Virus record (IMG/VR): IMGVR_UViG_3300023720_000218
Strand: one strand, 5' to 3'
Length of the DNA stretch: 64,000 nt
From: a virus
Shown here: in pieces, positions 1,957-19,625 of the stretch
Position numbering within the stretch: position 1 is the stretch's first letter
How the letters are laid out: each line of letters opens with the position of its first letter
Made by a program: the position numbers and the translations under genes
The notes under the pieces: generated by a model
What the model was told of the DNA's origin: nothing
The model's input: the letters and a program-made list of their open reading frames with translations, nothing else
Databases searched by the model: none

Positions 1957-3150
1957 TTACATAGTCACAGTAGAAATGAACATATACTGCGGCATTCTCG
2001 GCACACACATTTGGGCGGCTTCACTTTCAATATAGATTGAATGTGTTTCAGGGTTGGCTCTCTGTGTCAGTTTCAAACGTCCACCGTCATAAGAAGCAAC
2101 CTTGTTTGCCTCATAACCCAAAGTCAAAGGCTCCACACCTTGAATAGTACCGATCTGACCTACCGGTATAAAGGCAATATTGGTGGCCTTGAAGTTCTCC
2201 ACTTGTTCAGTGATAAGATCAGGTTGTCCGTCCGCATCCTTACCGGGCTTGTCAACAAAAGCATAGCTGTCACGTGGCACGATTTCATCTACCTTAACCA
2301 GTTTCTTGAAAATGGCTTTCAGGCGGTCTTCATCTTCATTCTGTGCATTGGCAATAACCGTACTATCATCCGTCACAGTCGGATAGAGGGAATGGCCGAT
2401 ACGTTTAAGAACCGCGGTATGAGTCATTAAATCATCCCACAAGTCCTGCGCCAGCTCCATCCTGATCTTACCCAAATAATGATATTTGCGGCGAATCTCT
2501 TTCACTCTGTTCTTTATATCCATAATCGGATCAGAGGCAGAGCCTTGATTTGCCGGAATATGTTCATCCTTAGTCCACCAACGGCTTGTGCCGGCCAATA
2601 CCTGGTAATGGTTTTCAGGGATATTAAAGTCAATAGTGATACCCTTCAAACCACGTGGGTTGTTATCAGTATCAATAGTGAACTTACCCGTGGAAACAAT
2701 TCTCATTCGCTGGTGAGTAAGCGCATTGTAGTACGATCCGATAAGACCGTCAGCACTTTCATCAAGCAAGCCCAAGAACACATTCTGCATCTCTTCCGTC
2801 AATGCGGACATGCCTACCCGTTGCAACAGCTGTAATTGTTGTCTCACAGTCACACGGTTCAAACGGTAGAACTTCTTTTGAGTCGGGATATTACCCGTCC
2901 TTCCTTCGAGTTCTCCCAATGCAGCTTCATAACCCGGACTTTCCGGATCAACGTAAGCTGGCAGCGTTTTCACGCCGAGGCTCGTAATAAGCTGGGAGAA
3001 AGTATAATCCAACTTGGTTGCTTCAAATTCAAAACCATCAATTTGAAGTAGGTCATACTTCTCCTTGTAACGGTCAATAAATTCTTGCCAAGTGTCCCCA
3101 CCAAGCCCATACTCGATAACCTTGTACAAATCAATAGGAAGTGTATTCAT
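1957..3150 (-). CDS. putative major capsid protein
   Basis: 397-aa ORF directly downstream of a coiled-coil scaffold-like gene. The size and position are typical of HK97-fold major capsid proteins. No motif was verified. Confidence 0.45.
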   Translation of the reverse strand: MNTLPIDLYKVIEYGLGGDTWQEFIDRYKEKYDLLQIDGFEFEATKLDYTFSQLITSLGVKTLPAYVDPESPGYEAALGELEGRTGNIPTQKKFYRLNRVTVRQQLQLLQRVGMSALTEEMQNVFLGLLDESADGLIGSYYNALTHQRMRIVSTGKFTIDTDNNPRGLKGITIDFNIPENHYQVLAGTSRWWTKDEHIPANQGSASDPIMDIKNRVKEIRRKYHYLGKIRMELAQDLWDDLMTHTAVLKRIGHSLYPTVTDDSTVIANAQNEDEDRLKAIFKKLVKVDEIVPRDSYAFVDKPGKDADGQPDLITEQVENFKATNIAFIPVGQIGTIQGVEPLTLGYEANKVASYDGGRLKLTQRANPETHSIYIESEAAQMCVPRMPQYMFISTVTM

Positions 3151-3187: not shown

Positions 3188-3595
3188 TTACTGCACCCAT
3201 ACAATTTGAGGAAGTGTAGTAATCTTTTGCAGGATAGCGACCACTTCTTCGTCAAACATGTACTGATAAATCTCTCCGGCATAGACTACTGTCCCACTGG
3301 CCTTTGTGTTACCACTGGCTACAAGAATATCTTCTTGCAAATAACCATTAATGCCAAGAGTGGTAATATCTGATTCAGCCGCCTTGATCTGTGCGTCCGT
3401 GTAAGCGGTGAATGTCTTACCTGAAAGATCAAACTTCACAGCTGTACCGGCAGGAATTTTGCCAACTGCAACCCAATCGGAAATGTTGCTCACCATACCA
3501 CCGCCTGGATAACGGTGACGGATTTCACGCCACACTTTACGGGCATGTCCGTATTTCACGGTGTTCACATCAAACGTGTTACCCATTGTTCCCAT
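3188..3595 (-). CDS. hypothetical head protein (decoration or minor capsid?)
   Basis: 135-aa ORF between the scaffold and capsid genes. Confidence 0.3.
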   Translation of the reverse strand: MGTMGNTFDVNTVKYGHARKVWREIRHRYPGGGMVSNISDWVAVGKIPAGTAVKFDLSGKTFTAYTDAQIKAAESDITTLGINGYLQEDILVASGNTKASGTVVYAGEIYQYMFDEEVVAILQKITTLPQIVWVQ

Positions 3596-3622: not shown

Positions 3623-4246
3623 TCAATTCTTCTTCCAGCCTTCCTTCTTGCCTTTACGTTCAAAGTATCTGCTGGCTGCATTGTGTTGTGTTCCACCTGA
3701 ACCGTCAGAAGTTCTTGGGGCGGTGCCATAACCCCTGCACGCCTTATATTCTGCATCATATTTTGGCAGAAATTCAGTAACCAGTTCATCCACAGTTTTC
3801 TTGGTATCGAAAATTACTCCCTGCAAAGTCTTGCCCAATACGTAATCATCATTAGCTTGCTTGGCTTTCATTGCAGCCGTAACCTTCTTTAGCAGGTCAG
3901 CTTGAACCTTTTTGCTGTCTTCTGCATCTAAACGTGCTTCCAGTTCTTTCAGTTTCTTCTCCAGTTCATCATCGTTTTTCGGTGGTGCCGGTGGAGTTGG
4001 AGGTGTCGGGGGAGTCGGTTGGGGCTTATAGTTTTTCTTAAAGTCCTCAACTTTGGTTGCGACATCATGGTTGTACTGTCCTTGCATCTCTTTCAGAAAA
4101 TCCACAGCCTTGTTCCAATAAGCCTCGTCAGGCTCCGAACCTTCGGCCACGGGATTAAGTTCTACATACTTCTGTAATGTCTGCGGTGAAAAACTGGTTT
4201 CTCCAAGTTTCTCGCTTAATGTGGATAAGATTTTTTCTTGTTCCAT
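3623..4246 (-). CDS. putative scaffolding protein
   Basis: Lys/Glu-rich predicted coiled coil (…ELEKKLKELEARLDAEDSKK…) with a PTPPTPPTPPAPP linker, located just upstream of the capsid gene. The start is taken as MEQEK (ATG at 4246-4244) rather than the upstream in-frame ATG. Confidence 0.4.
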   Translation of the reverse strand: MEQEKILSTLSEKLGETSFSPQTLQKYVELNPVAEGSEPDEAYWNKAVDFLKEMQGQYNHDVATKVEDFKKNYKPQPTPPTPPTPPAPPKNDDELEKKLKELEARLDAEDSKKVQADLLKKVTAAMKAKQANDDYVLGKTLQGVIFDTKKTVDELVTEFLPKYDAEYKACRGYGTAPRTSDGSGGTQHNAASRYFERKGKKEGWKKN

Positions 4247-4339
4247 CGTGTTTATTTTGTGTTTATGTTGAATAAAAAAAGAGTCAGACAATGCTTTTTG
4301 CATCAATCTGACTCTTTGGTCTTATTTTCCATTTAATAG

Positions 4340-4421
4340 TGGGCAGTATTGGACTCGAACCAATGAAGACGAAAGCCAATAGATTTACAGTCTATCCCGT
4401 TTGCCACTTCGGTAACTACCC
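4340..4421 (-). tRNA. tRNA-Tyr (anticodon GTA), type II with long variable arm
   Basis: RC gives GGGTAGT…GACTGTAAATC…GGTTCGAGTCC…ACTGCCCA. There is a 7-bp acceptor stem, an anticodon loop CTGTAAA and a T-arm ATTGG/TTCGAGT/CCAAT. Confidence 0.75.
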
Positions 4422-4427
4422 GTTTTG

Positions 4428-4512
4428 CGGAAGCAGAAGGATTCAAACCTCCGAAGCCTTTCAGCTTGCCTCTTTAGCAAAGAGGTGGTATCGTTCACTC
4501 ACCCATACTTCC
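4428..4512 (-). tRNA. tRNA-Ser (anticodon GCT), type II
   Basis: RC gives GGAAGTA…CCTCT TTGCTAA AGAGG…GGTTTGAATCC…TGCTTCCG. It has a long variable arm and a perfect acceptor stem. Confidence 0.75.
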
Positions 4513-4585
4513 AATATGCGACCTACAAGATGTCTCGGTGAAACCACCGCATTTCCCTTGTATTTCGGACGTTATTCATTCTGTG

Positions 4586-4657
4586 TAGCGTATCAGAGAA
4601 TCGAACTCTGGTTTCCACCGTGAAAAGGTGACGACCTAACCGTTAGTCGAATACGCC
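4586..4657 (-). tRNA. tRNA-Glu (anticodon TTC)
   Basis: RC gives GGCGTAT…TCACC TTTTCAC GGTGG…CAGAG TTCGATT CTCTG ATACGCT A. The 5' end is uncertain by ±1 nt (G1-U72 wobble). Confidence 0.6.
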
Positions 4658-4662
4658 ATTTG

Positions 4663-4733
4663 TTGAGATACAAGGATTTGAACCTTGAATAGCAGAACCA
4701 AAATCTGCTGTGTTGCCATTACACCATATCTCA
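4663..4733 (-). tRNA. tRNA-Gln (anticodon TTG)
   Basis: RC gives TGAGATA…GCAGA TTTTGGT TCTGC…CAAGG TTCAAAT CCTTG TATCTCA A. The U1-A72 pair is typical of tRNA-Gln. Confidence 0.7.
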
Positions 4734-4738
4734 ATATG

Positions 4739-4811
4739 CGCGAAGAGAAGGACTCGAACCCCCGACAATCAGGTTTGGAATCTGACGTTCTTCCAACTGA
4801 ACTATCTCCGC
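4739..4811 (-). tRNA. tRNA-Trp (anticodon CCA)
   Basis: RC gives GCGGAGA TA GTTC AGTTGGAA GAAC G TCAGA TTCCAAA CCTGA…GGGGG TTCGAGT CCTTC TCTTCGC G. Confidence 0.65.
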
Positions 4812-4818
4812 TTCATTG

Positions 4819-4891
4819 CGCCCGGTGATAGAATCGAACTACCGACCTTTACATTAACAGTGTATTGCTCTACCAATTGAGCTAACCGGAC
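4819..4891 (-). tRNA. tRNA-Asn (anticodon GTT)
   Basis: RC gives GTCCGGT TA GCTC AATTGGTA GAGC A ATACA CTGTTAA TGTAA AGGTC GGTAG TTCGATT CTATC ACCGGGC G. Confidence 0.75.
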
Positions 4892-4897
4892 AATATA

Positions 4898-4965
4898 CCT
4901 ATACTCACCTAACCTGCGATACCCCATTTCAGCGTACCTGTGGGAATTGAACCACACCGTATAGG
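4898..4965. other. tRNA-like element with a perfect 7-bp terminal stem (CCTATAC/GTATAGG) and a T-arm-like hairpin; probably a degenerate pseudo-tRNA
   Basis: The hairpin TGTGG-GAATTGAA-CCACA (read on the minus strand as TTCAATTC) sits at the wrong end for a minus-strand tRNA. No consistent D-arm or anticodon arm could be folded in either orientation. Confidence 0.2.
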
Positions 4966-4970
4966 TTTTG

Positions 4971-5043
4971 TGGAAAGAGATGAAATCGAATCACCTTAAC
5001 CGGATTTTCAGTCCGGCGCATACACCACGTCTGCCATCTTTCC
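4971..5043 (-). tRNA. tRNA-Phe (anticodon GAA), atypical 3-bp D-stem
   Basis: RC gives GGAAAGA…CCGGA CTGAAAA TCCGG TTAA GGTGA TTCGATT TCATC TCTTTCC A. It has a perfect acceptor stem and a canonical T-arm. No CCA is encoded. Confidence 0.6.
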
Positions 5044-5108
5044 ATATTCTCCCTTTATCCCCATACGCCACATCGAAGGGAGAAACAATGCGGCAACTCC
5101 AACTATTG

Positions 5109-5181
5109 TTGCGGAGATTCGACTCGAACGAATGACCTTTGGGCTATGATCCCAACGAGCTACCAGCTGCTCCACTCCGCG
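5109..5181 (-). tRNA. initiator tRNA-fMet (anticodon CAT)
   Basis: RC gives CGCGGAG TG GAGC AGCTGGTA GCTC G TTGGG ATCATAG CCCAA AGGTC ATTCG TTCGAGT CGAAT CTCCGCA A. The C1·A72 mismatch and the three consecutive G-C pairs closing the anticodon stem are bacterial initiator hallmarks. Confidence 0.7.
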
Positions 5182-5196: not shown

Positions 5197-5379
5197 CTAC
5201 TTTGTACCCACAATATCCACATTTATGTAGTTCTTGCATCTACGACACTTCACTCTCAATATAACAACACCATTGACATAGCTTATATCAGTTAGTTTCT
5301 GACCGCATATCGGACATAAAACTATCTTGTTGTATATTTCCCTTTGATCTGCATCTTTATCCGCACTAATTTTTATCAT
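5197..5379 (-). CDS. small zinc-ribbon protein (Mu Com-like)
   Basis: 60-aa ORF with CPICGQK…CRRCKN, i.e. a CxxC-x(~25)-CxxC spacing. The size and spacing resemble the Mu Com translational activator. Confidence 0.35.
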   Translation of the reverse strand: MIKISADKDADQREIYNKIVLCPICGQKLTDISYVNGVVILRVKCRRCKNYINVDIVGTK

Positions 5380-5559
5380 ACTCCATGTTTTCGTTGCAAA
5401 TATATGTACTGGATTTCTTTTCTCAAAACATTTTTGATATTATTTTCTATTAAAATGTAGAAAATAATACTCTTTATGCGTATTTTTGTACTGCAATATT
5501 AGAATCAGAGCTTATAGGCCGGTCTCCACATGTGTAATGTGAGGATCGGTTTTCTTTTT

Positions 5560-7164
5560 ATGGAGAAATATAGTGGAATAAAAACGGTTAATGCCAGTTT
5601 GGTGCTTGATTATGAATATATCCAAATGTTAAGGGACGCGGATAGGAAAATTCCTAATCCGAATAAGATAATCGCACAAGGTGGAGGGCAGGAAAACATG
5701 CTCTCCACCCCGGCTGATATTACCATCTGTGGGGGATGCCGTGGAGGAAGTAAAACTTTTACTCTTCTTATGGAAACATTGAAAGATATAAAAAATAAAA
5801 ACTTCCGTTCTGTGCTTCTCCGGCATGAGATAGACGATCTCTCTGATATGGTAGAAACATCATCCACCTTATATGATGATTTTGGGGAATACAACAAGTC
5901 CAAAAACGACATGCGCTGGAATTTCTATAAAGGTGGATTTTTAAAATTCAGCTATCACGCTGACACACTTGACGATTTCAAAAAGCGTTTTCAAGGTAAA
6001 CAGTTCGCATATATAGGTGTGGATGAAATAACCCACATGGAATATCTCAAATTCAAATACCTTATCACTTGTAACCGTAACGCCTTTCATATCCGTAACC
6101 GCTTTATCGGAACATGTAACCCTGATCCTGACAGCTGGGTTGCAAAATTCATTGACTGGTGGATCGGAGAAGATGGTCTTCCAATCCCGGAACGTGATGG
6201 CAGAGTCCGGTATTGTTTTATGGACGGGGACAATGTTTCAGGTATATATTGGGGAGATACCCGTGAGGAAGTATATGAGCAATGCAAGGATATTATACAC
6301 GCCTACTGGAAGCCGGAGTATGAGCAATATGGCACACCACAAGAACTGTTTATCAAGTCGGTTACTTTTATTGAAGCAAAACTTTCCGATAATGTAAAAC
6401 TGATGTCTTCTGATCCGACCTATTTGGCTAACCTTGTCAACCAGTCAGATGAACAACGCGCACGCGATCTTGACGGTAACTGGAAATACAAAGCTGCCGG
6501 AGATGATATAATAAAGCTGACTCACATGGAAGCCTTATACCGCAATTCCATGCAGATAGGTGATGGAATACGCCGGGTATCATGTGATGCGGCATTTGAG
6601 GGTGGCGACAGTCTTGTCATGTGGCTGTGGGAAGGATGGCATATAAGAGACATATTTGTTTGCAAACTTGACAGCAAGAAAACAGTCGATACCGTAAAAG
6701 CGATGCTGGAAGAATGGCATGTAAGAGAAGAATGCTTCACCTATGACCTTAACGGACTCGGACAAATATTCAAAGGCTTTTTCCCGAATGCAATCCCATT
6801 CAACAACAAAGAAGCCGTGGAAGAGAAATTCAAATACATCTATGCGAATTTAAAATCACAAGCGGCATATCTGTTCGCACAAAAAATTATCAACCGGGAG
6901 ATTTCCATTGAACCGACTCTTCTTGAACGCAAGTTCTCCGGCAAAGGGTTTGAGAAAGTTCCCCTTAGACAGATTCTCGACAAGGAAAGGAAAGCGATAC
7001 GAAAGGATGAAGACAGTGAAGAGAAAGGCTGGACTATTATCAAGAAGATTATAATGAAAAAATTAGTAGGTCATTCTCCCGACTTCATAGAAGCATTGCT
7101 TATGCGAATGATTTTTGAAATTAAACATAAACGCAAACATATAAAAGGTTTAGGATTAATATGA
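5560..7164 (+). CDS. terL: terminase large subunit (PBSX/Terminase_6-like)
   Basis: N-terminal Walker A (ICGGCRGGSKTFTLL) and Walker B (IGVDEITHM), about 530 aa, directly followed by the portal gene. Start chosen at MEKYSG (ATG at 5560). Confidence 0.8.
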   Translation: MEKYSGIKTVNASLVLDYEYIQMLRDADRKIPNPNKIIAQGGGQENMLSTPADITICGGCRGGSKTFTLLMETLKDIKNKNFRSVLLRHEIDDLSDMVETSSTLYDDFGEYNKSKNDMRWNFYKGGFLKFSYHADTLDDFKKRFQGKQFAYIGVDEITHMEYLKFKYLITCNRNAFHIRNRFIGTCNPDPDSWVAKFIDWWIGEDGLPIPERDGRVRYCFMDGDNVSGIYWGDTREEVYEQCKDIIHAYWKPEYEQYGTPQELFIKSVTFIEAKLSDNVKLMSSDPTYLANLVNQSDEQRARDLDGNWKYKAAGDDIIKLTHMEALYRNSMQIGDGIRRVSCDAAFEGGDSLVMWLWEGWHIRDIFVCKLDSKKTVDTVKAMLEEWHVREECFTYDLNGLGQIFKGFFPNAIPFNNKEAVEEKFKYIYANLKSQAAYLFAQKIINREISIEPTLLERKFSGKGFEKVPLRQILDKERKAIRKDEDSEEKGWTIIKKIIMKKLVGHSPDFIEALLMRMIFEIKHKRKHIKGLGLI

Positions 7165-8657
7165 TAGCAGAGATTCTTACAAAAAAGCCTTTTGCAAGGG
7201 TTACTCCCGAAGGTTACTTGCAAGGCAGGATTACGAGCGATTTAAGAAACGCATCGTTCACAAACAACAGTGATAGGCTGACATGGCAGCTCATTTCGCA
7301 GGCTGATTTTATCCGTGAGTTTTATCCTTCAGGGCACAAGATCAATTCGGAATTGTTTTACCCGGACAGACTGAAATATGACGAAGAGAAGAAACGGTTC
7401 TTCCGGGAGAAAGTATTCCGTGCTTCTTTTCCCTTTCAGATGATAATCACTATCCAACAACTTGTACATCTATGTGGCAATGACATTCATCATGAGCTGA
7501 CCGATACCAAAGTTGATGAAAGTTCACGGGAAATATTTCTCGAATTTCAAAAAGGATGGCTGGATAAAAATATGGAGATTGCATTTTACGAATATGCCAA
7601 AAGTGTAAAAATAACGGGAGATGCAGCAATCGTATTCTATATGAATGAAGGTAAGGTATTCACCAAGAATCTTTCCTATTTTGATGGTGACACTCTTTAT
7701 CCTCACTACGACTCCATAACCGGTCAAATGACACTGTTTGCCCGACGATACAGTGACTATGACGAAGAGGGAAAGGAACTCATTTCTTGGGTAGAAGTGT
7801 GGGACAATAAAAAAATGTACCGTTACCGTCAGGATAAAGGGGGAATAGTCGGAGCAATAAACAAATTGAAACAGTATTTCGGTATTGAAGGATATACATT
7901 AGTGGAAGAACACGATCATGGATTTGCCGAATGTCCGGTTGTATATTATCGGGACAAACACGGTGCCTGCTGGAGCTTTTCACAAGATAATATCGACAAG
8001 TACGAACTGGCTATTTCCCATTTGTGTCAAAACAATATGGCATACGCATTTCCGATCATGTTACTTAAAGGTGAAGATGTTGAGATTCAAGGAGATATGT
8101 ATGGTGCGGTAAAAGCTATCACTATGGGGAAGGATGATGATGCAGGCTTTATGAATCGTCCCGAAGCATCACAATCATTTGAACTTCAAATTAATACATT
8201 ACTTAAAATGATTTTTATGGGGAGTTTTGTTGTCATGCCTCCCGAAGTAAAGTCAGGAGATTTGCCGGGTGTGGCTATCAAGCTGATATATTCACCATCT
8301 TTGGAAAAAGCCATGATTGACTGCAAGGAATTTGACGAATCAATAGACAAAATGAAACGGCTGTTCCTGCACGGATATGGAACTGAAAAAGGCCAACTTA
8401 CCAAATTCCTCAATTTGAAGATTTTTTCGTGGGCAGTTCCATACGTCCACCAAAATGCAGCAGAATTGGTATCGAACTTGGTACAATTAGTCGGTGCCGG
8501 TATTTTATCAAAAGAAACCGGCTCGGAAGAATCCGGCTATGGGAAAAACAATGAATGGGATCGTATCATGCGTGAATATAAGGAACAGCAACAAGCTGAC
8601 TTGCTATATCAACTGAAAATCAAGAAAAATGAAAATAAAGAGGGTAATGCAAAATGA
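7161..8657 (+). CDS. portal protein
   Basis: 498-aa ORF with an ATGA overlap to the terL stop. The size and position are typical of an SPP1-type portal. No motif was verified. Confidence 0.55.
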   Translation: MIAEILTKKPFARVTPEGYLQGRITSDLRNASFTNNSDRLTWQLISQADFIREFYPSGHKINSELFYPDRLKYDEEKKRFFREKVFRASFPFQMIITIQQLVHLCGNDIHHELTDTKVDESSREIFLEFQKGWLDKNMEIAFYEYAKSVKITGDAAIVFYMNEGKVFTKNLSYFDGDTLYPHYDSITGQMTLFARRYSDYDEEGKELISWVEVWDNKKMYRYRQDKGGIVGAINKLKQYFGIEGYTLVEEHDHGFAECPVVYYRDKHGACWSFSQDNIDKYELAISHLCQNNMAYAFPIMLLKGEDVEIQGDMYGAVKAITMGKDDDAGFMNRPEASQSFELQINTLLKMIFMGSFVVMPPEVKSGDLPGVAIKLIYSPSLEKAMIDCKEFDESIDKMKRLFLHGYGTEKGQLTKFLNLKIFSWAVPYVHQNAAELVSNLVQLVGAGILSKETGSEESGYGKNNEWDRIMREYKEQQQADLLYQLKIKKNENKEGNAK

Positions 8658-8737
8658 TCTGTACCAAAACGCGGAGCGCGAAAGCAATCCCGTACTCCGC
8701 GCTCCGAATCCAATGTAACTATACATCGGAAAAATCC

Positions 8738-8777
8738 GCCTCTGCCTACATAAAATAGACAGAGGCTTTACTTTTTC
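8738..8777. terminator. bidirectional rho-independent terminator
   Basis: The hairpin GCCTCTG-N15-CAGAGGC is flanked by a T-run (TTTACTTTTTC) on the plus strand and an A-run read as a U-run on the minus strand. It sits between the convergent portal and 8856..9110 genes. Confidence 0.45.
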
Positions 8778-8855
8778 AACAACTTGGTTGATAAGCTTGT
8801 GTTATAACAAGTCAACTTCTACATTGCAAATGTAATAAATAAATTGAATATGGCA

Positions 8856-9110
8856 CTACTTTCGATACAATTTTTTATTATAAGGCTTTCGAGGATATTT
8901 CCGGTTAAGCTTCTTTTGCAGATCATCATTGATACTTTCATTCAGAAGGATTTTAGAGTTTAGCACCCGGACTTCTCCAGTAAGTTCCATAATAGTTTTG
9001 GATTGTGTCGCATTTTGTTTTGAAAGTTCAACATTGGCAATAGCCAGTTTGCTGCATTCTGATGCAAGATGATTGAGTTTCTTTGTGCTGATTAATGATA
9101 GTCCAAACAT
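8856..9110 (-). CDS. hypothetical coiled-coil protein
   Basis: 84-aa ORF downstream of the head-morphogenesis gene. Confidence 0.3.
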   Translation of the reverse strand: MFGLSLISTKKLNHLASECSKLAIANVELSKQNATQSKTIMELTGEVRVLNSKILLNESINDDLQKKLNRKYPRKPYNKKLYRK

Positions 9111-9139
9111 AATATTCTGATATTTAGCATGTTAAATAA

Positions 9140-9928
9140 TTATATTGCTGATACGGGAACGGCAAAGCATTTACAATGACCGTGATACGGTGGTAATTTG
9201 TCCCATTCCACATGAAATCCGACTTCATCGTCACAAATGTTACAAGGATAGGAGCTGCCACGCATGACAAAGAACCCTACGGCTCCACAGGCTTTAGCCT
9301 GCAATTCCCAATGCTTCATCCACCCCTCTGCCACAGCATACTCCGTCAAATCTGACAGCGCAGTCCAAGAGCTTACAGTACGTCCTACTCCAAAAGACTC
9401 CTGAACACCGAGTCTTGAAATAATCGGATAACCCTTTGAAATAGCTCTCTGTACATGCTCATTGAGTAATGGCGTTTTTACCGACTGCCTGATAGATGAA
9501 AGTAGTTTGTCTTTGGAAAGGTTTAGTAGTAGTCCGGCGGCAATGGCCGTTTCAACCTCCTTTGAAAACCGGTCAACATATTCTCTTGCGCGTTGCGTGA
9601 AGGTTTTGCTGTATGATTCTCGCGTTATATATGTTATGATTGCATCCTTATTATCCTCATGTATCGCTACTGCCAAAGTATAAGTATAGTCTTCAATTAT
9701 TTCAAGAAGGGATAAAATAATGGCATCCACTTCCTCCTGCAACTGTCTGTTTGCTGAAAAACGGAACAGTTCAGGGCTGATCTTGTACCGGTATGAAATA
9801 TCTATAATTTGCTTTGCTGCCTCGATCATTACAATTTGAAGATTGGTACGCATGGATAGCTCCGCATCCAAACGTTGACGGAGGTATTCTTTGGTCTCTT
9901 CAATTTCCTTATCAGTCGGTACCCTCAT
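9140..9928 (-). CDS. head morphogenesis protein (Mu gpF / SPP1 gp7 family)
   Basis: 262-aa ORF whose C-terminus …KLPPYHGHCKCFAVPV matches the conserved HPNCRC-type motif that ends Phage_Mu_F domain proteins. Confidence 0.55.
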   Translation of the reverse strand: MRVPTDKEIEETKEYLRQRLDAELSMRTNLQIVMIEAAKQIIDISYRYKISPELFRFSANRQLQEEVDAIILSLLEIIEDYTYTLAVAIHEDNKDAIITYITRESYSKTFTQRAREYVDRFSKEVETAIAAGLLLNLSKDKLLSSIRQSVKTPLLNEHVQRAISKGYPIISRLGVQESFGVGRTVSSWTALSDLTEYAVAEGWMKHWELQAKACGAVGFFVMRGSSYPCNICDDEVGFHVEWDKLPPYHGHCKCFAVPVSAI

Positions 9929-10319
9929 TTTTATGTTCCTCCTTAATACTTTCCTTTATGCTATTCATGTTTCTTTCTTCTTCCAGTATTTTGGCATCAT
10001 CTTCCGGTGATACTGGTTTCTGCAAGCCTCGTAGCCGTTCGGTAAGATCAGAATAGCTTTTAAAAAACTCTTCCATAAACTTAACATCGGGGGTTGCGTT
10101 ACTAATAAGGAAACAGACTTTGATCCATGTTTCCAAATATTCGCGAAGTTCCTTATTGTTGGCTAATTCCCGAATCCGGGAGAACATTCCGTTGTCATCC
10201 CGAAAACGCATACTCCAAAAACCTGACACTGCCTTAATGCTGATCCAGTCATGTTCACTACCATTATCCCTCGTAACAATAAAGTTACCTACCTGAATAC
10301 CATTTGTTTTTTTGCTCAT
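9912..10319 (-). CDS. hypothetical protein
   Basis: 135-aa ORF in a tightly overlapping minus-strand operon (9912-12774). Confidence 0.3.
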   Translation of the reverse strand: MSKKTNGIQVGNFIVTRDNGSEHDWISIKAVSGFWSMRFRDDNGMFSRIRELANNKELREYLETWIKVCFLISNATPDVKFMEEFFKSYSDLTERLRGLQKPVSPEDDAKILEEERNMNSIKESIKEEHKNEGTD

Positions 10320-10702
10320 AATCCTATTTTCAATTTACGTTCAAATCTATCTCCATGATTAAAAAAGTATTCCTTACCGTAAGAGTTTATACGCTCTTCA
10401 TCCGATGATACTTTATTCATTTCATAAATCAAACAACTATACCTATCATCATCAGGAAGAAGTCCTTTGCATTCTTCTCTGATATAAATATGATGCTTCC
10501 CATTTACCCAATAAAATTCAGAGAGAAATCCACCAAGAAGCATTTCAATCATTTTTTGGTGCCTGACAGACAATTCTCCTTGCACTGCTATATCCATTGC
10601 AATACTCTTACCTTCTATTGTCTTCAATTCACATGAATAGTTCAAGGCTCGAAGGATAGACATCAGCTCAACACTTAACTCTATGTGATTCATATTTTTC
10701 AT
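10316..10702 (-). CDS. hypothetical protein
   Basis: 128-aa ORF with start/stop overlaps to its neighbours. Confidence 0.3.
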   Translation of the reverse strand: MKNMNHIELSVELMSILRALNYSCELKTIEGKSIAMDIAVQGELSVRHQKMIEMLLGGFLSEFYWVNGKHHIYIREECKGLLPDDDRYSCLIYEMNKVSSDEERINSYGKEYFFNHGDRFERKLKIGL

Positions 10703-10935
10703 ACTTTTACTATTTCAAATTCATCTGCATGTTCCTTACCAATCCAATCCCGTTTCTGATTTTCAGTTGCGGTTTCGTAGATTCTTCCTCGCTTAGACAA
10801 ATGCCTTTTCCTAAAAATATCTTCTTCTCCAAGTTTGTCATAATCTCTTCTTGAAGGGGATAATCCCTTTGCCCTGCAAAAGAACAATCCCGTTTCCTTG
10901 TGTCTAAATTTTACTGCCATGCTTATTCCTCCCAT
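10699..10935 (-). CDS. hypothetical basic protein
   Basis: 78-aa ORF with overlapping stop codons in the operon. Confidence 0.25.
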   Translation of the reverse strand: MGGISMAVKFRHKETGLFFCRAKGLSPSRRDYDKLGEEDIFRKRHLSKRGRIYETATENQKRDWIGKEHADEFEIVKV

Positions 10936-11105
10936 GGATTTTCGTCTTCTTCCTCAACGTAAATCCGTTTTAATTTGTCTGATACTTCTTCAAGCTCACG
11001 CTTCATTTGATTTACATGAAATCCAGCTGGCATAGGGATTTCTAATGTTCCCCGTAGGTTATCTATTCTTTCAATAACCTCTGCAAATTCATCCGGTGCG
11101 ATCAT
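10923..11105 (-). CDS. hypothetical acidic protein
   Basis: 60-aa ORF immediately downstream of the primase/helicase gene. Confidence 0.25.
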   Translation of the reverse strand: MIAPDEFAEVIERIDNLRGTLEIPMPAGFHVNQMKRELEEVSDKLKRIYVEEEDENPWEE

Positions 11106-11106
11106 A

Positions 11107-12744
11107 CTATTTGGTTCTTATTTTTAATTGTTTGATAATCTTCTCCACAGCGTCCAAGTCAAAAACTGTTGTTCTTTTCTCCATGTGGTACGTCCCTTCC
11201 AGTTTCTTCTCCCGGAACAAACGCTGAACTTGATAAATGCTTAATGACAAGCAAGCCGCAAGTCCTTCATGGGTATAGGCATATCGTTTGCCATCTTTGT
11301 AAACCGGTTTGGCGATCCTTTGCTTATAGTTGCCCCGTAAGTCTTCCCGTTTCTCATAATAGAGTTTTTCCGTCAAGGCTGTTCCATATAAGCCATATAC
11401 CTGACCGTTCGGGGTTCTTTTTTTGCGATAACCGGCTTCCGAAAGAATACGTCCGAATACTGTCACATTCTCTTCTTTGGCATTATTGTCCCTACACCAT
11501 TTGCAATATTTCCGGTACAGAATGGCCGAAGACATCCATTTGGGTTCAATATCAGCAATTTCCTCATAGCGGCACAGATAGTTCATTTGATACATGAACT
11601 TCATTACGGTACTACTTTCCGACTGATATTCATCCATGACATTTTCAAGCTCCTTACTGTCTGTCAACTTATAACCATTGGCGATAAAACGGTCACGTCC
11701 TTCCAATATCCAATTGAATATAGCTGGGTATTCGGCCTCCAAATCCCGTGACAGTTCTTTTTTCTGCCGGGCTTTGGGTATCTCCACCTCAAAGGGAATA
11801 ATGCAAATACGCCGCCTCATTCCATAGCTCCAGTCTTTCAAATACGGCATTTGGTTGGCATTTGCCATAAGCAGAAGAATATTGTAAGCAGTGAAGTTAT
11901 CGCCATAGATAGGCCGGGCTTCGGTAGGTTCACCACTGATAAGGCTCTTCAACGTGTCACTATCCTTACCAAACTCTAACGCTTGTATTTCAGAACAGTA
12001 GTTCAACCGCTTGCCATTAATGAAAGCGATATTTTTTTTTCTCTCATTTCCAGTAATCAATGCACCTATGCCGAAATTGCTGACATTCTCCCGGCCAAGT
12101 ATGCCCATGATCGTTTCAAAGACTACACTTTTGCCATTGGAGCCGGAGCCACGAAGAACAAGCATAGTTTCCATTTTCGCCACACGCCGGTCAACAAAAA
12201 TACTTCCAAGAAACTCCTGCAAAACTTTTTGCATGTTTTTGTCCGGCAAAACTTCATCCAGGAACATTCTCCAAAGAAAGACATGCTCTTCCGGCTTGTA
12301 GTCATAGGGAACACATGTAGTCTGTACCCAACGGCGGTTGAAAGAATGTGCACGGCGAGCATTCATATCAAACACACAGTTATTGAACACCACAATGGCA
12401 TTATCAGGCTTCAAGGCTTTTCCTGCCACCACACGCTTACAGACTTTCAGTACACCCTCCACACGGGAATAATCACCATTGGGCATTTTGCATTTACGCA
12501 TCAAGTCATATATCAGATTGCCAAAATCATCCCATGCCATCTCTTCATATATCCGGCCACTGAAATAGTAAGGCGTACCATTGAACTTACAAATCGAAGA
12601 TCGTATAATGGCTGCACGCATCAAGTCCTGCACAGCGTCAACACGCGCTGCACTTTTGGACTCTTGTAAGGCGGCATCCAGTTTCTCGCCTTTCATAAGC
12701 CCGAAGACCTCATTTAACAACTTCCTATACTTTCCCTTCTCCAT
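11107..12744 (-). CDS. phage/plasmid primase, P4-family C-terminal domain with SF3 (D5-like) helicase NTPase
   Basis: Walker A LRGSGSNGKSVVFETI and Walker B-like LLLMANANQMP. It is about 545 aa and sits next to the iteron region. Start taken at MEKGKYRKL (ATG at 12744); an upstream in-frame ATG at 12774 is also possible. Confidence 0.65.
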   Translation of the reverse strand: MEKGKYRKLLNEVFGLMKGEKLDAALQESKSAARVDAVQDLMRAAIIRSSICKFNGTPYYFSGRIYEEMAWDDFGNLIYDLMRKCKMPNGDYSRVEGVLKVCKRVVAGKALKPDNAIVVFNNCVFDMNARRAHSFNRRWVQTTCVPYDYKPEEHVFLWRMFLDEVLPDKNMQKVLQEFLGSIFVDRRVAKMETMLVLRGSGSNGKSVVFETIMGILGRENVSNFGIGALITGNERKKNIAFINGKRLNYCSEIQALEFGKDSDTLKSLISGEPTEARPIYGDNFTAYNILLLMANANQMPYLKDWSYGMRRRICIIPFEVEIPKARQKKELSRDLEAEYPAIFNWILEGRDRFIANGYKLTDSKELENVMDEYQSESSTVMKFMYQMNYLCRYEEIADIEPKWMSSAILYRKYCKWCRDNNAKEENVTVFGRILSEAGYRKKRTPNGQVYGLYGTALTEKLYYEKREDLRGNYKQRIAKPVYKDGKRYAYTHEGLAACLSLSIYQVQRLFREKKLEGTYHMEKRTTVFDLDAVEKIIKQLKIRTK

Positions 12745-12751
12745 GTACAAT

Positions 12752-13015
12752 CTATGAATTTGAATACCCGGCACGGGTTAAGGCCTCAACCATATATACT
12801 GACAGATTATTTATAGCAACATCTCCTGAATATCCAAATCGCCACAAATCAGTACGCCAGTCCTCTAAAGATGTGTCACAAGGTATATGATATTTTTGCA
12901 TAATATCTCGCATCACCGCACAATCTTCATATCTTTCCTCTTCCTGCGCTTTTCTGAACACAGAAACAAAAACGTATCGCCCATAATCAAACAATATAGA
13001 CTCAAACTTATTCAT
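12752..13015 (-). CDS. hypothetical protein
   Basis: 87-aa ORF between the iteron region and the primase gene. Confidence 0.3.
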   Translation of the reverse strand: MNKFESILFDYGRYVFVSVFRKAQEEERYEDCAVMRDIMQKYHIPCDTSLEDWRTDLWRFGYSGDVAINNLSVYMVEALTRAGYSNS

Positions 13016-13318
13016 ACCACCGTTTTTATACCCGAAAACAAAGCATTTCTACTGTTTTTATGCTATTTTTCAAGTGTTTTATGCCACAAATATAGCTTAT
13101 TTTCTACATAATTACCATATAAATACTATTATTTTCTACTTAAAATATAGAATAAACACGCTTTTTTGAAGTCTTTTTGCCATGTTTTTATTCGTTGCAT
13201 CATTGAAGACCAATAATCGCAAAATATTGATAAACAAAGGATAACTACTCTATTTCAATAGGAAATACAGATGGAACATTCTCTCTGATATGTATGGTTT
13301 ATGTAGGGTTTTAAAGGC

Positions 13319-13552
13319 AACTATACATATATAACATATTGAAATACAAATCAATGGAAAAATAGTGCATAGTATGTATAGTTTTTTATGCAAACCATAT
13401 TATATATATTTTTTTCCCATACGCAATTTACATATAAACTATACATACTATACATTAAATTTCCATTGACCTAATAATGAATGATTTACACATGTATAGT
13501 TATGAAGTAAACTATACATATACTATACATTTTCAGAAGTAAAACTATACAT
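13319..13552. repeat. iteron cluster: at least 9 copies of (A)ACTATACAT in both orientations; candidate replication origin
   Basis: Forward copies at 13319, 13437, 13447, 13510, 13522 and 13543. Reverse copies (ATGTATAGTT) at 13374 and 13492, plus a 1.5-copy at 13366-13383. The cluster lies in a 750-bp AT-rich non-coding gap upstream of the primase/helicase operon. Confidence 0.5.
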
Positions 13553-13775
13553 CGGACATTCACTTTTGTAATTTATCATTGGAAAAGCCTTAAAAACATC
13601 CATTATTGGCTCCAAAAAAGAAAAAAAAATAAAAATCTTGACCGGGATTGAAACATGCTTGGTGTCTTGGGTAGCCGGGGGGGGGTGCCCTCCCTGCTTT
13701 CATTATCCAGTTGACCGGCAAAGAAGGAGAAAAGCCGCGCTTTGCCTTGATTCTCTTTATATTATACCTATAATA

Positions 13776-14411
13776 TTAAATATTATCCGGCTTTTCCGCT
13801 TCTTCTGCTTTCCGTTTTGCTCGATCAGCTATAAAAAGGCTGCATCTATAACATTGCAAAGGCAGATAATAATGTACTGTTTCCTCTTCTTCTGTATTTT
13901 CGTCCTTCTTCATCTGTTGTAAATCGGCTATTTTCATTAATACATCCGCGCGATCTTTCCCCCTTAAATAAGGTAGGGTTTGTTCGAGACCTGATAAAAC
14001 CGCGTCTTTATCCCGATATTGTACAACATTCCCGGCTTTTTCTTCCTCTTCTGCTTCTGTGTTTTTCTTTTTCTTCTTGCTTTTGGTGCTATCATTGTCA
14101 GGAAGGAAGGCCGCGCGGTTATCTTCAAAAGATCGTATAAGCTTATTAATACCGGGTTTATCCTTTGCAAGTTGGGCGGCTCCGCGTTGCGCCGTTTCTA
14201 TTTTGGTTGATCGTGGTCTAAATATAGTTGCGTATGCTTCGCCACGACTGGCGCCGGATGCTACAAGCATACAAAAGAAAACATCATCCGGGTTTAATTG
14301 ATAAATTTGCTGTAAATCTGTTACGCGCTTACTATACACCATATAAAACGATATAAAAGGGTTTATTATATTGGCGTCTCGCGCTCTGTAACTTGCTACA
14401 AAGTTAAACAA
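13776..14411 (-). CDS. hypothetical Lys/Glu-rich protein
   Basis: 211-aa ORF at the first position of the CpG-rich module. Confidence 0.35.
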   Translation of the reverse strand: MFNFVASYRARDANIINPFISFYMVYSKRVTDLQQIYQLNPDDVFFCMLVASGASRGEAYATIFRPRSTKIETAQRGAAQLAKDKPGINKLIRSFEDNRAAFLPDNDSTKSKKKKKNTEAEEEEKAGNVVQYRDKDAVLSGLEQTLPYLRGKDRADVLMKIADLQQMKKDENTEEEETVHYYLPLQCYRCSLFIADRAKRKAEEAEKPDNI

Positions 14412-14692
14412 AGGCTATAAATAAAGCAAATAAGCATATTTAGATGTTTACATCTATAAATATTTCCTTACTTCTTAAATGCTTTATATTTATTCCCTTG
14501 TTGTTATATAATATACTGATAATCAATATATTATACAAGTATTAATAAATGCAAAAAATGGAGTGTTTCCTTAAAAATAAAGATACATTTTGTTTTGTAT
14601 TACAAATATTATTCGTATCTTTGTAATACAGAAAAGGAGATAAACGGTTAACGTCTTCCACACTTTCCCGTTTTTACTTCTTCTTTGGTTGA

Positions 14693-14956
14693 ATGTTTAA
14701 TTTAAAATATAAGATCATGGAAGTATTACTAAACTTACAAAACAAAAATGTAACGCTAAACGCCGTACATGTAGCCCCGGAGGGCACAAACTGTTGCAAC
14801 CGTTTAAAGGTTCATTTTGATGTATTTCAGGAAACAGCGAAAAAAGCCGCTATTATAAGACTATCGACGGCAAACAGTTTTGAACTGATTCACTATCAAG
14901 ATAAACATATAGCGTTATTAATACCTTTTGATCGCATTCAAAAGATTTCATACTAA
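14693..14956 (+). CDS. hypothetical protein
   Basis: 87-aa ORF preceded by the repeat CGGTTAACGTCTTCCACA (14646-14663). Confidence 0.3.
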   Translation: MFNLKYKIMEVLLNLQNKNVTLNAVHVAPEGTNCCNRLKVHFDVFQETAKKAAIIRLSTANSFELIHYQDKHIALLIPFDRIQKISY

Positions 14957-15098
14957 TAAAAAAAGCCGGATCAGTGCGTTAACTTCTCCGGCCTCCCTTT
15001 AAACTTTGCGTTTATCGGTTAACGTCTTCCACAACGTTAAATGCAAAGTTAAGGGAAAAACAAAGACAAACCAAGTTTCACCCTTTAATTTTTGCGTT

Positions 15099-15380
15099 AT
15101 GAACACAGATTTATTAATTATCTACATTCGCAATTCTCGCGATATTTACGCGCTTACTGAATGGTTGCAAAATGCACTTTTGAAAAAAGTAAACCGCGGT
15201 TTAACTCCTTCCGTTGAATATCTTGCAAACTGTTCCACTATGAAAAAGATCGTCCGGATGGCTGCAAAAATGCTTTCCGATCAGGATCATAAGACCGCAA
15301 CCAAGCAAGAAAAAGAACAAGCGGCAAGAGAACACGCGGCCTATATTATCGGATGCGTGGAATATCTTTCTAAATTCTAA
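15099..15380 (+). CDS. hypothetical protein
   Basis: Start placed at MNTDLL because the conserved upstream motif CCCTTTAATTTTTGCGTTATG abuts this ATG. The ORF track reports a longer frame from 15006. Confidence 0.35.
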   Translation: MNTDLLIIYIRNSRDIYALTEWLQNALLKKVNRGLTPSVEYLANCSTMKKIVRMAAKMLSDQDHKTATKQEKEQAAREHAAYIIGCVEYLSKF

Positions 15381-15457
15381 TAATAACTATTTTTCCGGGG
15401 CTGTCATGGCTCCGGGTTACTTCTTACTTTCATTATTCACCCTTTAAATTTTGTATT

Positions 15458-16351
15458 ATGACAACTACAAATAGACTTTGTTACACAGTATCAAAAAGAT
15501 ATATTCAAGCCGGGACAACCTTTAAAATCAATGTTAAAATATTACTGGCTGATGATTGCAAAAATAATATATGCGATTGGAGTATAACGGCGGATATTTA
15601 CGAACAACGCAAAAACGGGCGTTTCGTTTGGTGTGCTGGTGGTTGCTGCCATGAAGAAATACTAAAGCGTTTCCCACAGTTTAAAATGTTCGTTGATCTT
15701 CATTTGTCTAATCATTACGGCGCGCCAATGTACCCAGTTGAAAACGGGTTTTACCATATTACGAACAGCAGCAAAGAAACTGCAATTAACTATTTGCGTA
15801 TCACGGAAACGGAATATGATTTACTTCATCAGGCAGAAGATAAACAATACTTTAAATACCTCCTTTATATGCTCGGTATCGTTGAACGCTGGAAAAGAGA
15901 ATCTAACGAGGCTTTAAAAAAGCTGGAAGAGTTAACCGGGCAAACATGGGAAAACCCATATAAGCCGGAAAACGAACGTTTTACTTTGAAATTGACGGAC
16001 GAAGAACGTACAACTATAACTAACAGAATAAACGATGGTTATTATCATCCTGAAGCTGTACAAGCGCGAAAAGACGAAGAAAAGCGCAAAGCATACGAGA
16101 AAAAACGCGCTGAAATAATTAACGATTGCAAAAAGAAACAACAAAAGGCCGAAAATGAAAAGCGGGTTATGTTGGCCGTTCTTGATGCCGGGTTATCAGT
16201 TAGTAATGTGATATATTACGATCATAGTAACGAGCTTGTTTTTAATTGGAAAGACTACGAAACAAAAGTAACGGAGAACGATTTTAATAAATTCGTCTCC
16301 AGTGTTAACCGTTCTTTGTTGCCTGCTGGCATAACTTTTAAAATGAAATAG
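15458..16351 (+). CDS. hypothetical protein
   Basis: 297-aa ORF with the same upstream motif (CCCTTTAAATTTTGTATTATG) abutting its ATG. Confidence 0.4.
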   Translation: MTTTNRLCYTVSKRYIQAGTTFKINVKILLADDCKNNICDWSITADIYEQRKNGRFVWCAGGCCHEEILKRFPQFKMFVDLHLSNHYGAPMYPVENGFYHITNSSKETAINYLRITETEYDLLHQAEDKQYFKYLLYMLGIVERWKRESNEALKKLEELTGQTWENPYKPENERFTLKLTDEERTTITNRINDGYYHPEAVQARKDEEKRKAYEKKRAEIINDCKKKQQKAENEKRVMLAVLDAGLSVSNVIYYDHSNELVFNWKDYETKVTENDFNKFVSSVNRSLLPAGITFKMK

Positions 16352-17051
16352 CCTTATGAAAGTACGTAGAATAACAAAAGAAGAAGGAAAACGGGTGAAT
16401 ATATCCCGTTTCCCGAACTTTCATAAATCCGGCAGTATTAGAGGAATAAAAAAACAGTATTACGGCGTTGCCGCGCTGCTGGTGCGTTGTGGAAGCTATA
16501 TATATAACGTAACATCAGAACCAAACATTTATTATAATGCTAAATAATTAAGAATATGTTTTGTTTAATGCTGCTTTTGTTCGGTGCCGTGGTGTTTATC
16601 TCCGGCACCGATCCCAAGAAACTAAAAGACTTCATAAATAAAAACGATCAATCAGACAAATTTTAAATTTATGGAGAAAAAGATATTATATCATATTGGA
16701 TTATACGGATTTAGAAAACTTATAGTTTATGTGATAAAGGATAACGGGGATAATACATCTATTGTTAGCCTTAACAAAGACGGTTCATTTCCTAAACACG
16801 TTTGGAACTGTAATTTGCATAACATAAACGAATAATACAAATACTCCACCGCGCCGGGCGGTTTCCCGGCATTCCTTTAAACTTTGATATTATGACTACT
16901 TATATAATAGAATCCCCAAACGGAGAAACGCACAAATTAGAAGTATTCCGCACCGCAACCGGATTTAGTGTTTATGTTGATGGCTCAAATATATGTGAGA
17001 GTATAACGGAGGAAGATTTTTTGCAAGAGCTTGAAAACCCTACTTCCTAAC

Positions 17052-17192
17052 ATGGTGGGCGTAATTATTTGGCTAATAGTAGTTTTATTAATCTGCTTTA
17101 GCGTGTTTGGCGGTCTTTGGCTGCTTCCTATTTACTTGCTTTTTTGCCTTGCTTTAGGCTTTTACTTTGGTGTAAAATATCTAACTATTTAA
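17052..17192 (+). CDS. small hydrophobic two-helix membrane peptide (46 aa); a paralogue is at 61569..61709
   Basis: MVGVIIWLIVVLLICFSVFGGLWLLPIYLLFCLALGFYFGVKYLTI. It is too short for the ORF track. The second copy is MLGVLVWIVVILLICFSVFGGPCLLPLYVLFVVVVGFYFGVKYLDI. Confidence 0.4.
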   Translation: MVGVIIWLIVVLLICFSVFGGLWLLPIYLLFCLALGFYFGVKYLTI

Positions 17193-17196
17193 TGTT

Positions 17197-19618: not shown

Positions 19619-19625
19619 CATAATT

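Follow-up and report, generated by a model that had tools for sequence, protein, structure and literature searches.

The closest described system to the DNA considered here is LoVEphage, an inducible temperate phage that is highly prevalent in the human gut and lives in several Bacteroides and Phocaeicola species (PMC8525569, PMC12629997). The phage described as "Quimbyvirus" integrates into tRNA-Asp and carries a tRNA ligase gene beside four methyltransferase genes (Benler et al. 2021, PMC8008677). LoVEphage matches that description in both tRNA-Asp integration and tRNA ligase; its prophage copies adjoin host tRNA-Asp(GTC) genes, the sole tRNA type found in the prophage flanks. Our subject is an array of eight tRNA genes, one of them an initiator-type tRNA-Met, in a 64,000-nucleotide stretch of the IMG/VR virus record IMGVR_UViG_3300023720_000218, which is called the window below. 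The window region is 98.7-99.9% identical to the records of Bacteroides phage LoVEphage, Bacteroides phage BI-TP1 and Phocaeicola phage PV4-TP1, and on this similarity we assign it to LoVEphage/"Quimbyvirus", a temperate Bacteroides/Phocaeicola phage of the candidate family Quimbyviridae.

The 871-bp array alone has 99.1-100% identity to LoVEphage-type GenBank records (MW660583.1, OY731433.1 and others), in which the same eight tRNAs are annotated, the Met gene under the label 'tRNA-Met' only. Because the window is 99% identical to GenBank records that annotate these tRNAs, the array was already known. The tRNA ligase of this phage has likewise been proposed to mend tRNAs that anticodon nucleases of the host have cut (Benler et al. 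2021, PMC8008677), and an initial annotation of the window, which had linked the array to an RtcB RNA ligase as a theme of tRNA damage and repair, adds nothing new as first stated. What we can add is modest and threefold: a corrected tRNA count, the initiator identity of the Met gene with its synteny across a clade of phages, and a conserved non-canonical pair of bases at positions 32 and 38 of its anticodon loop. In the literature that we read, we found no description of the initiator identity, the A32/G38 loop or the clade-wide synteny of the LoVEphage tRNA-Met. Our best explanation of the locus, held with a little more belief than doubt, is that it is a late-expressed tRNA supply unit whose initiator core is coupled to transcription of the head operon.

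The eight tRNA genes and the initiator type of tRNA-Met

ARAGORN, run on the 64-kb window, calls exactly eight tRNA genes, all on the minus strand and in the order first listed (Table 1). Covariance-model scores below threshold had been named beforehand as the outcome that would speak against the array; since all eight genes score 45.1-65.0 bits against the gathering score of 29 bits of the Rfam tRNA model RF00005, with matches spanning the full-length model 1-71, the array stands. A whole-window Rfam scan listed seven of the genes, the speed filters alone having dropped the Met gene. The spacing was described as 5-7 nt throughout, which is wrong: the actual spacers are 5, 72, 4, 4, 6, 78 and 64 nt, and the three long ones are tRNA-sized gaps, 214 nt in total, that had been overlooked. 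The array does lie between the head genes and the terminase as had been placed, with the major head protein gene on its own strand and the large terminase gene (TerL) on the other, the portal gene being beside TerL. It is also correct that no CCA is encoded, every gene ending in the discriminator base, C74 and then a non-C base. Native host tRNA-Asp genes are also without CCA, with C74 and with ATAT(T) leaders, and the missing CCA is simply the host gene style. Two details of the elongator tRNAs may be recorded. In the window, tRNA-Trp has an A31·C39 mismatch at the base of the anticodon stem, the corresponding pair being A31-U39 in three other LoVEphage array variants, and tRNA-Gln has G37; E. 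coli tRNA-Gln has A37.

The LoVEphage paper counts nine tRNA genes (PMC8525569), and this count should be eight. The supposed ninth, a two-piece 'tRNA-His/Undet' at MW660583.1 29237-29439 (window 33560-33762, plus strand), is a false positive: ARAGORN does not call it, Rfam gives no match for it at E ≤ 10, and it sits within open reading frames (ORFs) 33157-33612 and 33612-33770. With it removed, RtcB has no intron-containing tRNA left to splice.

The description of the Met gene as an initiator with C1·A72 and a GGG/CCC anticodon stem holds, G29-31 being paired with C39-41, and further initiator marks are A11:U24, G2:C71, C3:G70 and A73. The last three are the formylation determinants of bacterial initiator tRNA. 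When 5,426 E. coli genomes were searched with the Met gene, there was a median of four matches per genome at 78-80% identity, and these fall in the initiator locus, a tandem tRNA-Met cluster flanked by mltA and amiC; the E. coli elongator tRNA-Met and tRNA-Ile2 genes gave no match at E ≤ 1e-3. By these features the Met gene is an initiator-type tRNA, for which charging, formylation and P-site initiation are predicted. The initial annotation also called a phage-encoded initiator relatively uncommon. We found no published frequency figure for phage initiator tRNAs in the literature and made a BLAST estimate instead, in which 306-358 of 50,697 deposited phage genomes (about 0.6-0.7%) have a match similar to the canonical initiator, in line with that remark. 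The phages with such matches are mostly large and tRNA-rich, and in IMG/VR initiator-like tRNA genes are numerous in absolute terms.

tRNA-Met in related phages

Using TerL as the anchor, we collected about 100 related loci and then scanned them for tRNAs. The array content is polymorphic, with 8, 7, 4, 2, 1 or 0 genes. LoVEphage-like genomes have the eight tRNAs, some of them seven through loss of Tyr. A relative in Bacteroides sp. GD17 (93% TerL identity) has Met, Phe, Gln and Tyr in the same frame, and compared with this type the LoVEphage-specific additions are two blocks, one consisting of the Phe-Asn gap (gap B in Table 1), Asn and Trp, and the other of Glu, the Glu-Ser gap (gap C) and Ser. 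A B. reticulotermitis relative (65% TerL identity) has the Met gene only. The Met gene is retained in the 4-, 2- and 1-tRNA relatives, and on this distribution we take it to be the most persistent member and the conserved core of the locus. In one contig, from a Phocaeicola metagenome-assembled genome (L086, about 3440-3520), a deletion fuses tRNA-Phe to tRNA-Tyr at their 3′ ends; six tRNAs are gone, the chimera has a Phe acceptor stem with two mismatches, and the initiator tRNA is the only one intact.

More distant copies were found by a pattern search of IMG/VR that required the A32/G38 loop and excluded LoVEphage's own stem. It matched ten contigs, one of the GD17 type and nine others with a single such tRNA, in one case plus an Asn gene. 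A TerL homologue (51-57% identical) lies about 170-200 nt from the tRNA in eight of the nine, and in the ninth, a short contig, the tRNA is at the contig end with only a major capsid protein (MCP) homologue. All nine have the MCP homologue on the other side of the tRNA. In the three distant contigs in which strands were checked, the tRNA points the same way as MCP and away from TerL, which is also the LoVEphage arrangement.

Thirteen diverged copies of tRNA-Met could be aligned for covariation; the seven elongator tRNAs are too little diverged for this. In the cloverleaf of tRNA-Met, 95.2% of cells are paired, and controls with slid partners pair 37-44%. Compensatory double changes occur in 11 of 21 pairs, a number reached by 0 of 500 shuffles, and the covariation score is 0.48 versus 0.166 in shuffles and 0.067-0.119 for slid partners. 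A11:U24, G2, C3:G70 and A73 are invariant in 13/13 copies, position 71 is C in 11 copies and U in the other 2, and the 1:72 position is unpaired in 12/13, as C·A, C·C, C·U or A·A; in one LoVEphage sub-lineage A72 has become U with C1 kept, so that the mismatch persists. The full GGG/CCC stem is found in the window and in contig L298, the other 11 clade members having A29:U41 plus two G-C pairs. The initiator-type tRNA is clearly under purifying selection. The tRNA-Met of the GD17 type (L027/L087, 3571-3643) is about 75% identical to the LoVEphage gene at 5108-5181, differing in the T arm, in a variable loop AAAAC and in an AGG/CCU stem, and Phe, Gln and Tyr are nearly identical between the two, which suggests that the initiator gene alone was replaced or diverged rapidly.

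The anticodon loop of the LoVEphage initiator is AUCAUAG, with A32 and G38, instead of the canonical CUCAUAA. A32 together with G38 is present in 12 of the 13 clade members, namely the LoVEphage type, the GD17 type and the nine distant TerL-linked copies, the B. reticulotermitis-type relative (L036/L098) having a near-canonical UUCAUAA; in one LoVEphage sub-lineage A32 has become G (GUCAUAG), still a purine. Among the matches listed for initiator-like tRNAs in IMG/VR, 102 of 116 have CUCAUAA and AUCAUAG is in LoVEphage only. Low-GC viral initiators with an upstream Bacteroidota-type promoter motif have the canonical loop in 13/13 cases. A scan of 241 million metagenome records for GGG-stem A32/G38 initiators, in which T28 stems, LoVEphage's own stem type, were excluded, gave 39 matches, one of them a real tRNA. 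These indirect tests argue that the AUCAUAG loop is not native to the host. Positions 32 and 38 pair in E. coli tRNAfMet (Cm32-A38; PMC2528185), and in the AUCAUAG loop this pair cannot form as such. Enteric VapC toxins cut the initiator tRNA at A38|C39 (PMC4105405); the A32/G38 positions flank this bond, and the conserved change therefore sits exactly where known toxins cut initiator tRNA.

Expression and function of the array

All eight genes are on one strand, four of the spacers are 4-6 nt, and the array is flanked by a single promoter-like site on its upstream side and a single strong hairpin plus T-run on its downstream side (Table 1). The promoter-like region has a TAnnTTTG -7 motif at 5397-5404 (minus strand) that is kept in GD17-type relatives, and it is overlapped by a sigma-70-like TTGAGA-16-TATATT with 10/12 matches at 5426..5399. 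No second TAnnTTTG occurs on the minus strand from 5404 down to 1162, and the motif faces one on the plus strand that precedes TerL. At the other end of the array, the hairpin is kept in GD17-type and L036-type relatives and is absent from the single-tRNA relatives. Only about 25-30 nt separate its end from the start codon of the following head-module gene, too little to fit another promoter. In the nine distant relatives a conserved promoter-like region comes first, then a small hairpin, an AAYAT leader and the tRNA, with the first head-gene ATG about 45 nt further on, so that in them the tRNA is in the leader of the head operon with no terminator between tRNA and head gene. According to a preprint on the induction of gut prophages, the LoVE tRNAs increase together with the middle-late terminase, capsid, portal and endolysin genes, and RtcB, the four methyltransferases and an endonuclease of the same phage are expressed early (bioRxiv 10.64898/2026.06.25.734096).

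Our preferred explanation, the late supply unit, would put these observations together as follows. A functional tRNA operon would head the leftward late (head-gene) unit, with the terminase gene running the other way. From a single promoter region near 5400, transcription would pass through the zinc-ribbon ORF that precedes the array and through the eight tRNAs and, reading through the hairpin at 4271-4326, would continue into the head genes. Since the phage tRNA genes share the host style, host RNase P and RNase Z presumably excise the tRNAs, and their completion would fall to the host CCA-adding enzyme. The initiator-type tRNA-Met would be the ancestral and most persistent member; as it is the sole tRNA in the head-operon 5′ leader of the distant relatives, every late transcript there would deliver one initiator tRNA. 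LoVEphage would have gained the seven elongator tRNAs in blocks. The purpose would be to sustain translation, initiation above all, during the late burst of protein synthesis, independently of a host tRNA pool that is perhaps limiting, varying among host species, or depleted or cleaved during induction.

Several findings weigh against this explanation. Relatives at 82-86% TerL identity (L035, L088) and Prevotella/Segatella-type relatives (58%) have no tRNA at the locus, and there are LoVEphage variants that lack Tyr or lack six tRNAs; it follows that the elongator tRNAs are dispensable and that the Met gene is not universal. TAnnTTTG occurs 77 times genome-wide versus 76 expected and the sigma-70 motif count is also at chance, which leaves position and conservation as the basis for assigning the promoter, and we infer the single transcription unit and its read-through from motifs that are not above chance. 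Late genes also equal early genes in their use of the codons that the array serves.

Table 1. Positions in the window of the array, its surroundings and RtcB
Feature	Position	Strand	Basis and remarks
tRNA-Tyr(GTA)	4339-4421	-	ARAGORN; Rfam 57.7 bits; long variable arm (bacterial type)
tRNA-Ser(GCT)	4427-4512	-	ARAGORN; Rfam 45.1 bits; long variable arm
Gap C, Glu-Ser, 72 nt	4513..4584	-	19.4% variable; fold z=-2.35
tRNA-Glu(TTC)	4585-4657	-	ARAGORN; Rfam 56.8 bits
tRNA-Gln(TTG)	4662-4733	-	ARAGORN; Rfam 65.0 bits
tRNA-Trp(CCA)	4738-4811	-	ARAGORN; Rfam 59.2 bits
tRNA-Asn(GTT)	4818-4891	-	ARAGORN; Rfam 63.7 bits
Gap B, Phe-Asn, 78 nt	4892..4969	-	12.8% variable; fold z=-1.41
tRNA-Phe(GAA)	4970-5043	-	ARAGORN; Rfam 54.5 bits
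Gap A, Met-Phe, 64 nt	5044..5107	-	18.8% variable; fold z=0.02
tRNA-Met(CAT), bacterial initiator type	5108-5181	-	ARAGORN; Rfam 52.9 bits
Zinc-ribbon ORF, CxxC...CxxC, 60 aa	5197..5379	-	16 nt upstream of first tRNA
Promoter-like region	5397..5440	-	TTTG, 19 nt, then TATATTTG; Bacteroidota-type -33/-7 arrangement
Terminator-like hairpin and T-run	4271..4326	-	-23.1 kcal/mol, z=-5.97, 0/200 shuffles
First head-module gene downstream of array, scaffold-like position	3623..4246	-	GenBank OY731433 CDS; PHROG 5824, unknown function
Major head protein	1957-3150	-	
TerL	5530-7164	+	
Portal	7161-8657	+	
RtcB	43767-45038	+	PF01139 195.8 bits vs 27-bit cut-off

The zinc-ribbon ORF matches PHROG 6417, 'translational regulator', at E=5e-5, and its matches to Pfam zinc ribbons are weak. 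It is 87% identical in a GD17-type contig, and a similar ORF abuts tRNA-Met in the B. reticulotermitis-type L036. Homology to Mu Com was considered and dropped, since only a 12-residue stretch with the RCxRCK motif aligns. A second small zinc-ribbon ORF is at 33612-33770 (plus strand). Hairpins of unrelated sequence recur directly 5′ of tRNAs, each with an AAYAT-like, A/T-rich leader after it: TCTCCCTT..AAGGGAGA before Phe in LoVEphage (window 5050-5085, minus strand), CTCCGT..ACGGAG in the GD17 type (L027, about 3465-3500), and GCCCGAAGCGTCGGGC directly 5′ of tRNA-Met in distant relatives (L231-L240). They may be processing or stability elements.

The alternative that survives best, possible but in our judgment unlikely, is counter-defence, in which the A32/G38 initiator and the other phage tRNAs would be nuclease-insensitive replacements and RtcB would reseal the tRNAs that are cut. 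Candidate tRNases are VapC/PIN, HEPN, PrrC/RloC-like, Schlafen, and retron/Septu or PARIS effectors. Of the initial interpretation, the array with a true initiator and the RtcB ligase are real; its further idea of a buffer against host nucleases or translation shut-off is plausible, unproven and previously proposed. RtcB clears its Pfam cut-off widely (Table 1), and its metal- and GMP-binding motifs MPDTHQG, DIGCG, GGGNHF, HTGSR and PHGAGR align with the solved Thermus and Pyrococcus enzymes. RtcB joins 3′-phosphate or 2′,3′-cyclic-phosphate ends to 5′-OH ends. Besides these intact motifs and the published repair idea for a LoVEphage-type phage, counter-defence has in its favor that the AUCAUAG loop is kept across a deep phage clade (12/13) and is rare elsewhere, that A32/G38 are at the pairing positions 32/38 (PMC2528185) and beside the VapC cut at A38|C39 (PMC4105405), that loop changes are a proposed escape route for phage tRNAs (PMC10264068), that phage tRNAs are proven to act so in T5, and that codon compensation, the main alternative to it, is weak.

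On the other side, the cognate host tRNA nuclease is hypothetical, a host initiator with T28 and the same loop may exist, the difference of the loop from the host's being supported indirectly, and the L036/L098 loop is near-canonical. RtcB is 39 kb from the array and tied to it by theme only, it is early when the tRNAs are middle-late, and it appears broken in some contigs. In these LoVEphage contigs RtcB is split, with residues 1-72 and 79-423 about 27 nt apart, or with 127-177 missing (L272/L292 and L276/L289; IMG/VR 3300029732_000059, 7000000075_000107), which suggests frameshifted or deleted alleles, or assembly errors. Close relatives of RtcB (93-100%) are all in LoVEphage-like contigs, and the next are 38-44% identical and in unrelated large phages. 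In the host flank of one prophage (L108, 1-2610) there are HepT-like/HEPN and nucleotidyltransferase genes of the MNT-HEPN type, which are candidate RNA-targeting toxin-antitoxin modules in a LoVEphage host.

Slightly more doubtful again is a reading that starts from the initiator variant itself. Here a clade-specific initiator, with a purine at 32 and G38 where C32/A38 is near-universal and with every determinant of methionylation, formylation and EF-Tu rejection kept, would be made stoichiometrically from the head-operon leader, would have been selected to escape a host nuclease (for example a VapC-like 38|39 cut) or to favor initiation on late phage mRNA in the Shine-Dalgarno-poor Bacteroidota, and would later have been expanded to eight tRNAs by LoVEphage.

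Codon or amino-acid compensation, in which an AT-richer phage brings tRNAs for codons that it overuses relative to its hosts, we consider improbable. The host sample was 63 kb of genes from the prophage flanks, with 44.1% GC versus 39.0% for the phage. A comparison of codon usage with a Bacteroides host had been suggested at the outset, and its result is weak. Individual codons are enriched, TGG being 1.56 times and CAA, GAA, AAT and AGT 1.3-1.5 times commoner in phage ORFs than in host-flank genes, and the served codons make up 29% in phage genes versus 27% in host genes (p=0.002-0.0002). As a set, however, the served codons or boxes are no more enriched in the phage than the remaining ones (permutation p=0.27; Mann-Whitney p=0.16). 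The most phage-enriched codons, AGA/AGG, CCA and TCA, are without a phage tRNA, Phe codons are depleted in the phage, the C-ending codons cognate to the G34 tRNAs are not enriched, and the equality of late and early genes given above counts here as well. Compensation is thus weak, and it cannot account for the initiator tRNA, the conserved core.

More improbable still is a passenger or decaying locus, in which hitch-hiking tRNAs of little or no function are kept by chance at a recombination-prone junction. The polymorphic array content and the Phe/Tyr fusion deletion of L086 would fit it, as would the three long gaps, which look unconstrained. Over 21 distinct LoVEphage arrays, 12.8-19.4% of columns are variable in the long gaps versus 1.4-8.2% in the tRNAs, and by a factor of 2-3 the tRNAs vary less than the long spacers do. 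We rejected the gaps as hidden tRNAs or known small RNAs: they have no notable Rfam match, the folds of gaps A and B are insignificant, and in gap C the substitutions, read from the variant sequences, mostly break predicted pairs. The 3′ half of gap A is the hairpin TCTCCCTT...AAGGGAGA just 5′ of tRNA-Phe, and gap B holds a T-arm-like GGTTCAATTCC/GGTTCGATTCC motif. Gap B, Asn and Trp are all absent from the GD17-type array, and so are gap C, Glu and Ser. Aligned locally to the array tRNAs, gaps A-C do not score above shuffles (p=0.13-0.67). The 112-nt Met-Phe gap of the GD17 type matches its own tRNA-Met in register (z=2.8, p about 0.02), resembling a decayed copy, and this match, with the T-arm-like motif of gap B, makes decay of tRNA copies a reasonable, weakly supported origin of the gaps. 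A 156-nt insertion between Phe and gap B in one LoVEphage variant (L018 3281-3428; window about 4969) has T-arm-like and D-arm-like fragments, but no tRNA is called in it. Against the passenger reading are the strong covariation of tRNA-Met with its identity elements kept across deep divergence, the far lower variability of the tRNAs than of the spacers, and the high covariance-model scores of all genes together with their reported expression, and for the Met gene it is largely refuted.

That the CAT-anticodon gene might be an elongator tRNA-Met or a lysidine-bearing tRNA-Ile2 can be dismissed as very improbable: GenBank labels it merely 'tRNA-Met', its loop differs from the canonical initiator and most relatives have two of the three G-C pairs, but it has the full initiator marks (C1·A72, A11:U24, G29-31:C39-41, G2:C71, C3:G70, A73), 1:72 is unpaired in 12/13 clade members, its E. 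coli matches are the mltA-amiC initiator cluster and not the elongator or Ile2 genes (E ≤ 1e-3), and it has G4:C69 and G5:C68, whereas TilS uses pairs of the opposite orientation, C4:G69 and C5:G68.

Elsewhere in the genome, LoVEphage lies beside tRNA-Asp(GTC) in one or three tandem copies in contigs L103-L110 (positions about 9500-9800), and its prophages are in two chromosomal contexts, a purU/his side and an aminotransferase/DUF179/RecR side, which implies that at least two attB sites are in use. Between the tRNA array and the integrase (window about 5200-22000), the coordinate offset to MW660583.1 shifts by about 750 bp, implying one or more early-region indels between the window genome and MW660583.

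Comparison with known tRNA systems

Two questions are opened by this locus, why a temperate phage brings an initiator tRNA and whether the initiator tRNA is a target of anti-phage defence in Bacteroidota. Because engineering tools for temperate Bacteroides phages exist (PMC12629997), LoVEphage is a tractable system in which to ask both.

The nearest cellular counterpart is the E. coli tRNAfMet encoded by metZWV and metY, with which the phage gene has in common the CAU anticodon, C1·A72, A11:U24, the three G-C pairs, G2:C71, C3:G70 and A73. It differs in its loop, AUCAUAG where E. coli has CUCAUAA, and in not encoding CCA. Among phage arrays, the T4 cluster, in a virulent phage and with no initiator, comprises eight tRNAs plus two small stable RNAs, matured by host RNase P together with the CCA-adding enzyme. 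Both arrays have tandem genes on the same strand, very short spacers and tRNA-sized segments that are not tRNA, and both would depend on host processing, which for LoVEphage is a prediction. Unlike T4, LoVEphage is temperate, its array heads a structural operon, and it includes an initiator; and where the non-tRNA segments of T4 are stable RNAs, the LoVEphage gaps are without conserved structure. Like the T4 pair Pnkp/Rnl1, which reseals PrrC-cleaved tRNA-Lys, the LoVEphage RtcB is a phage RNA ligase that could reseal breaks in the anticodon loop. RtcB is of another enzyme family, however, it is early with the four methyltransferases and unlinked to the array, and its substrate is putative.

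In phage T5, tRNA-Tyr counters retron Ec78/PtuAB and tRNA-Lys counters PARIS (PMC11555353, PMC11464382), and in cluster C1 mycobacteriophages loop differences are the proposed basis for the insensitivity of anticodon-loop variants (PMC10264068). The likeness is in phage tRNAs that replace or outlast the host tRNAs attacked by a nuclease, and for LoVEphage it may hold by analogy. Lastly, a survey of enterobacterial phages finds that they mostly avoid encoding tRNA-fMet, whereas in the LoVEphage clade the initiator is the conserved core of the array.

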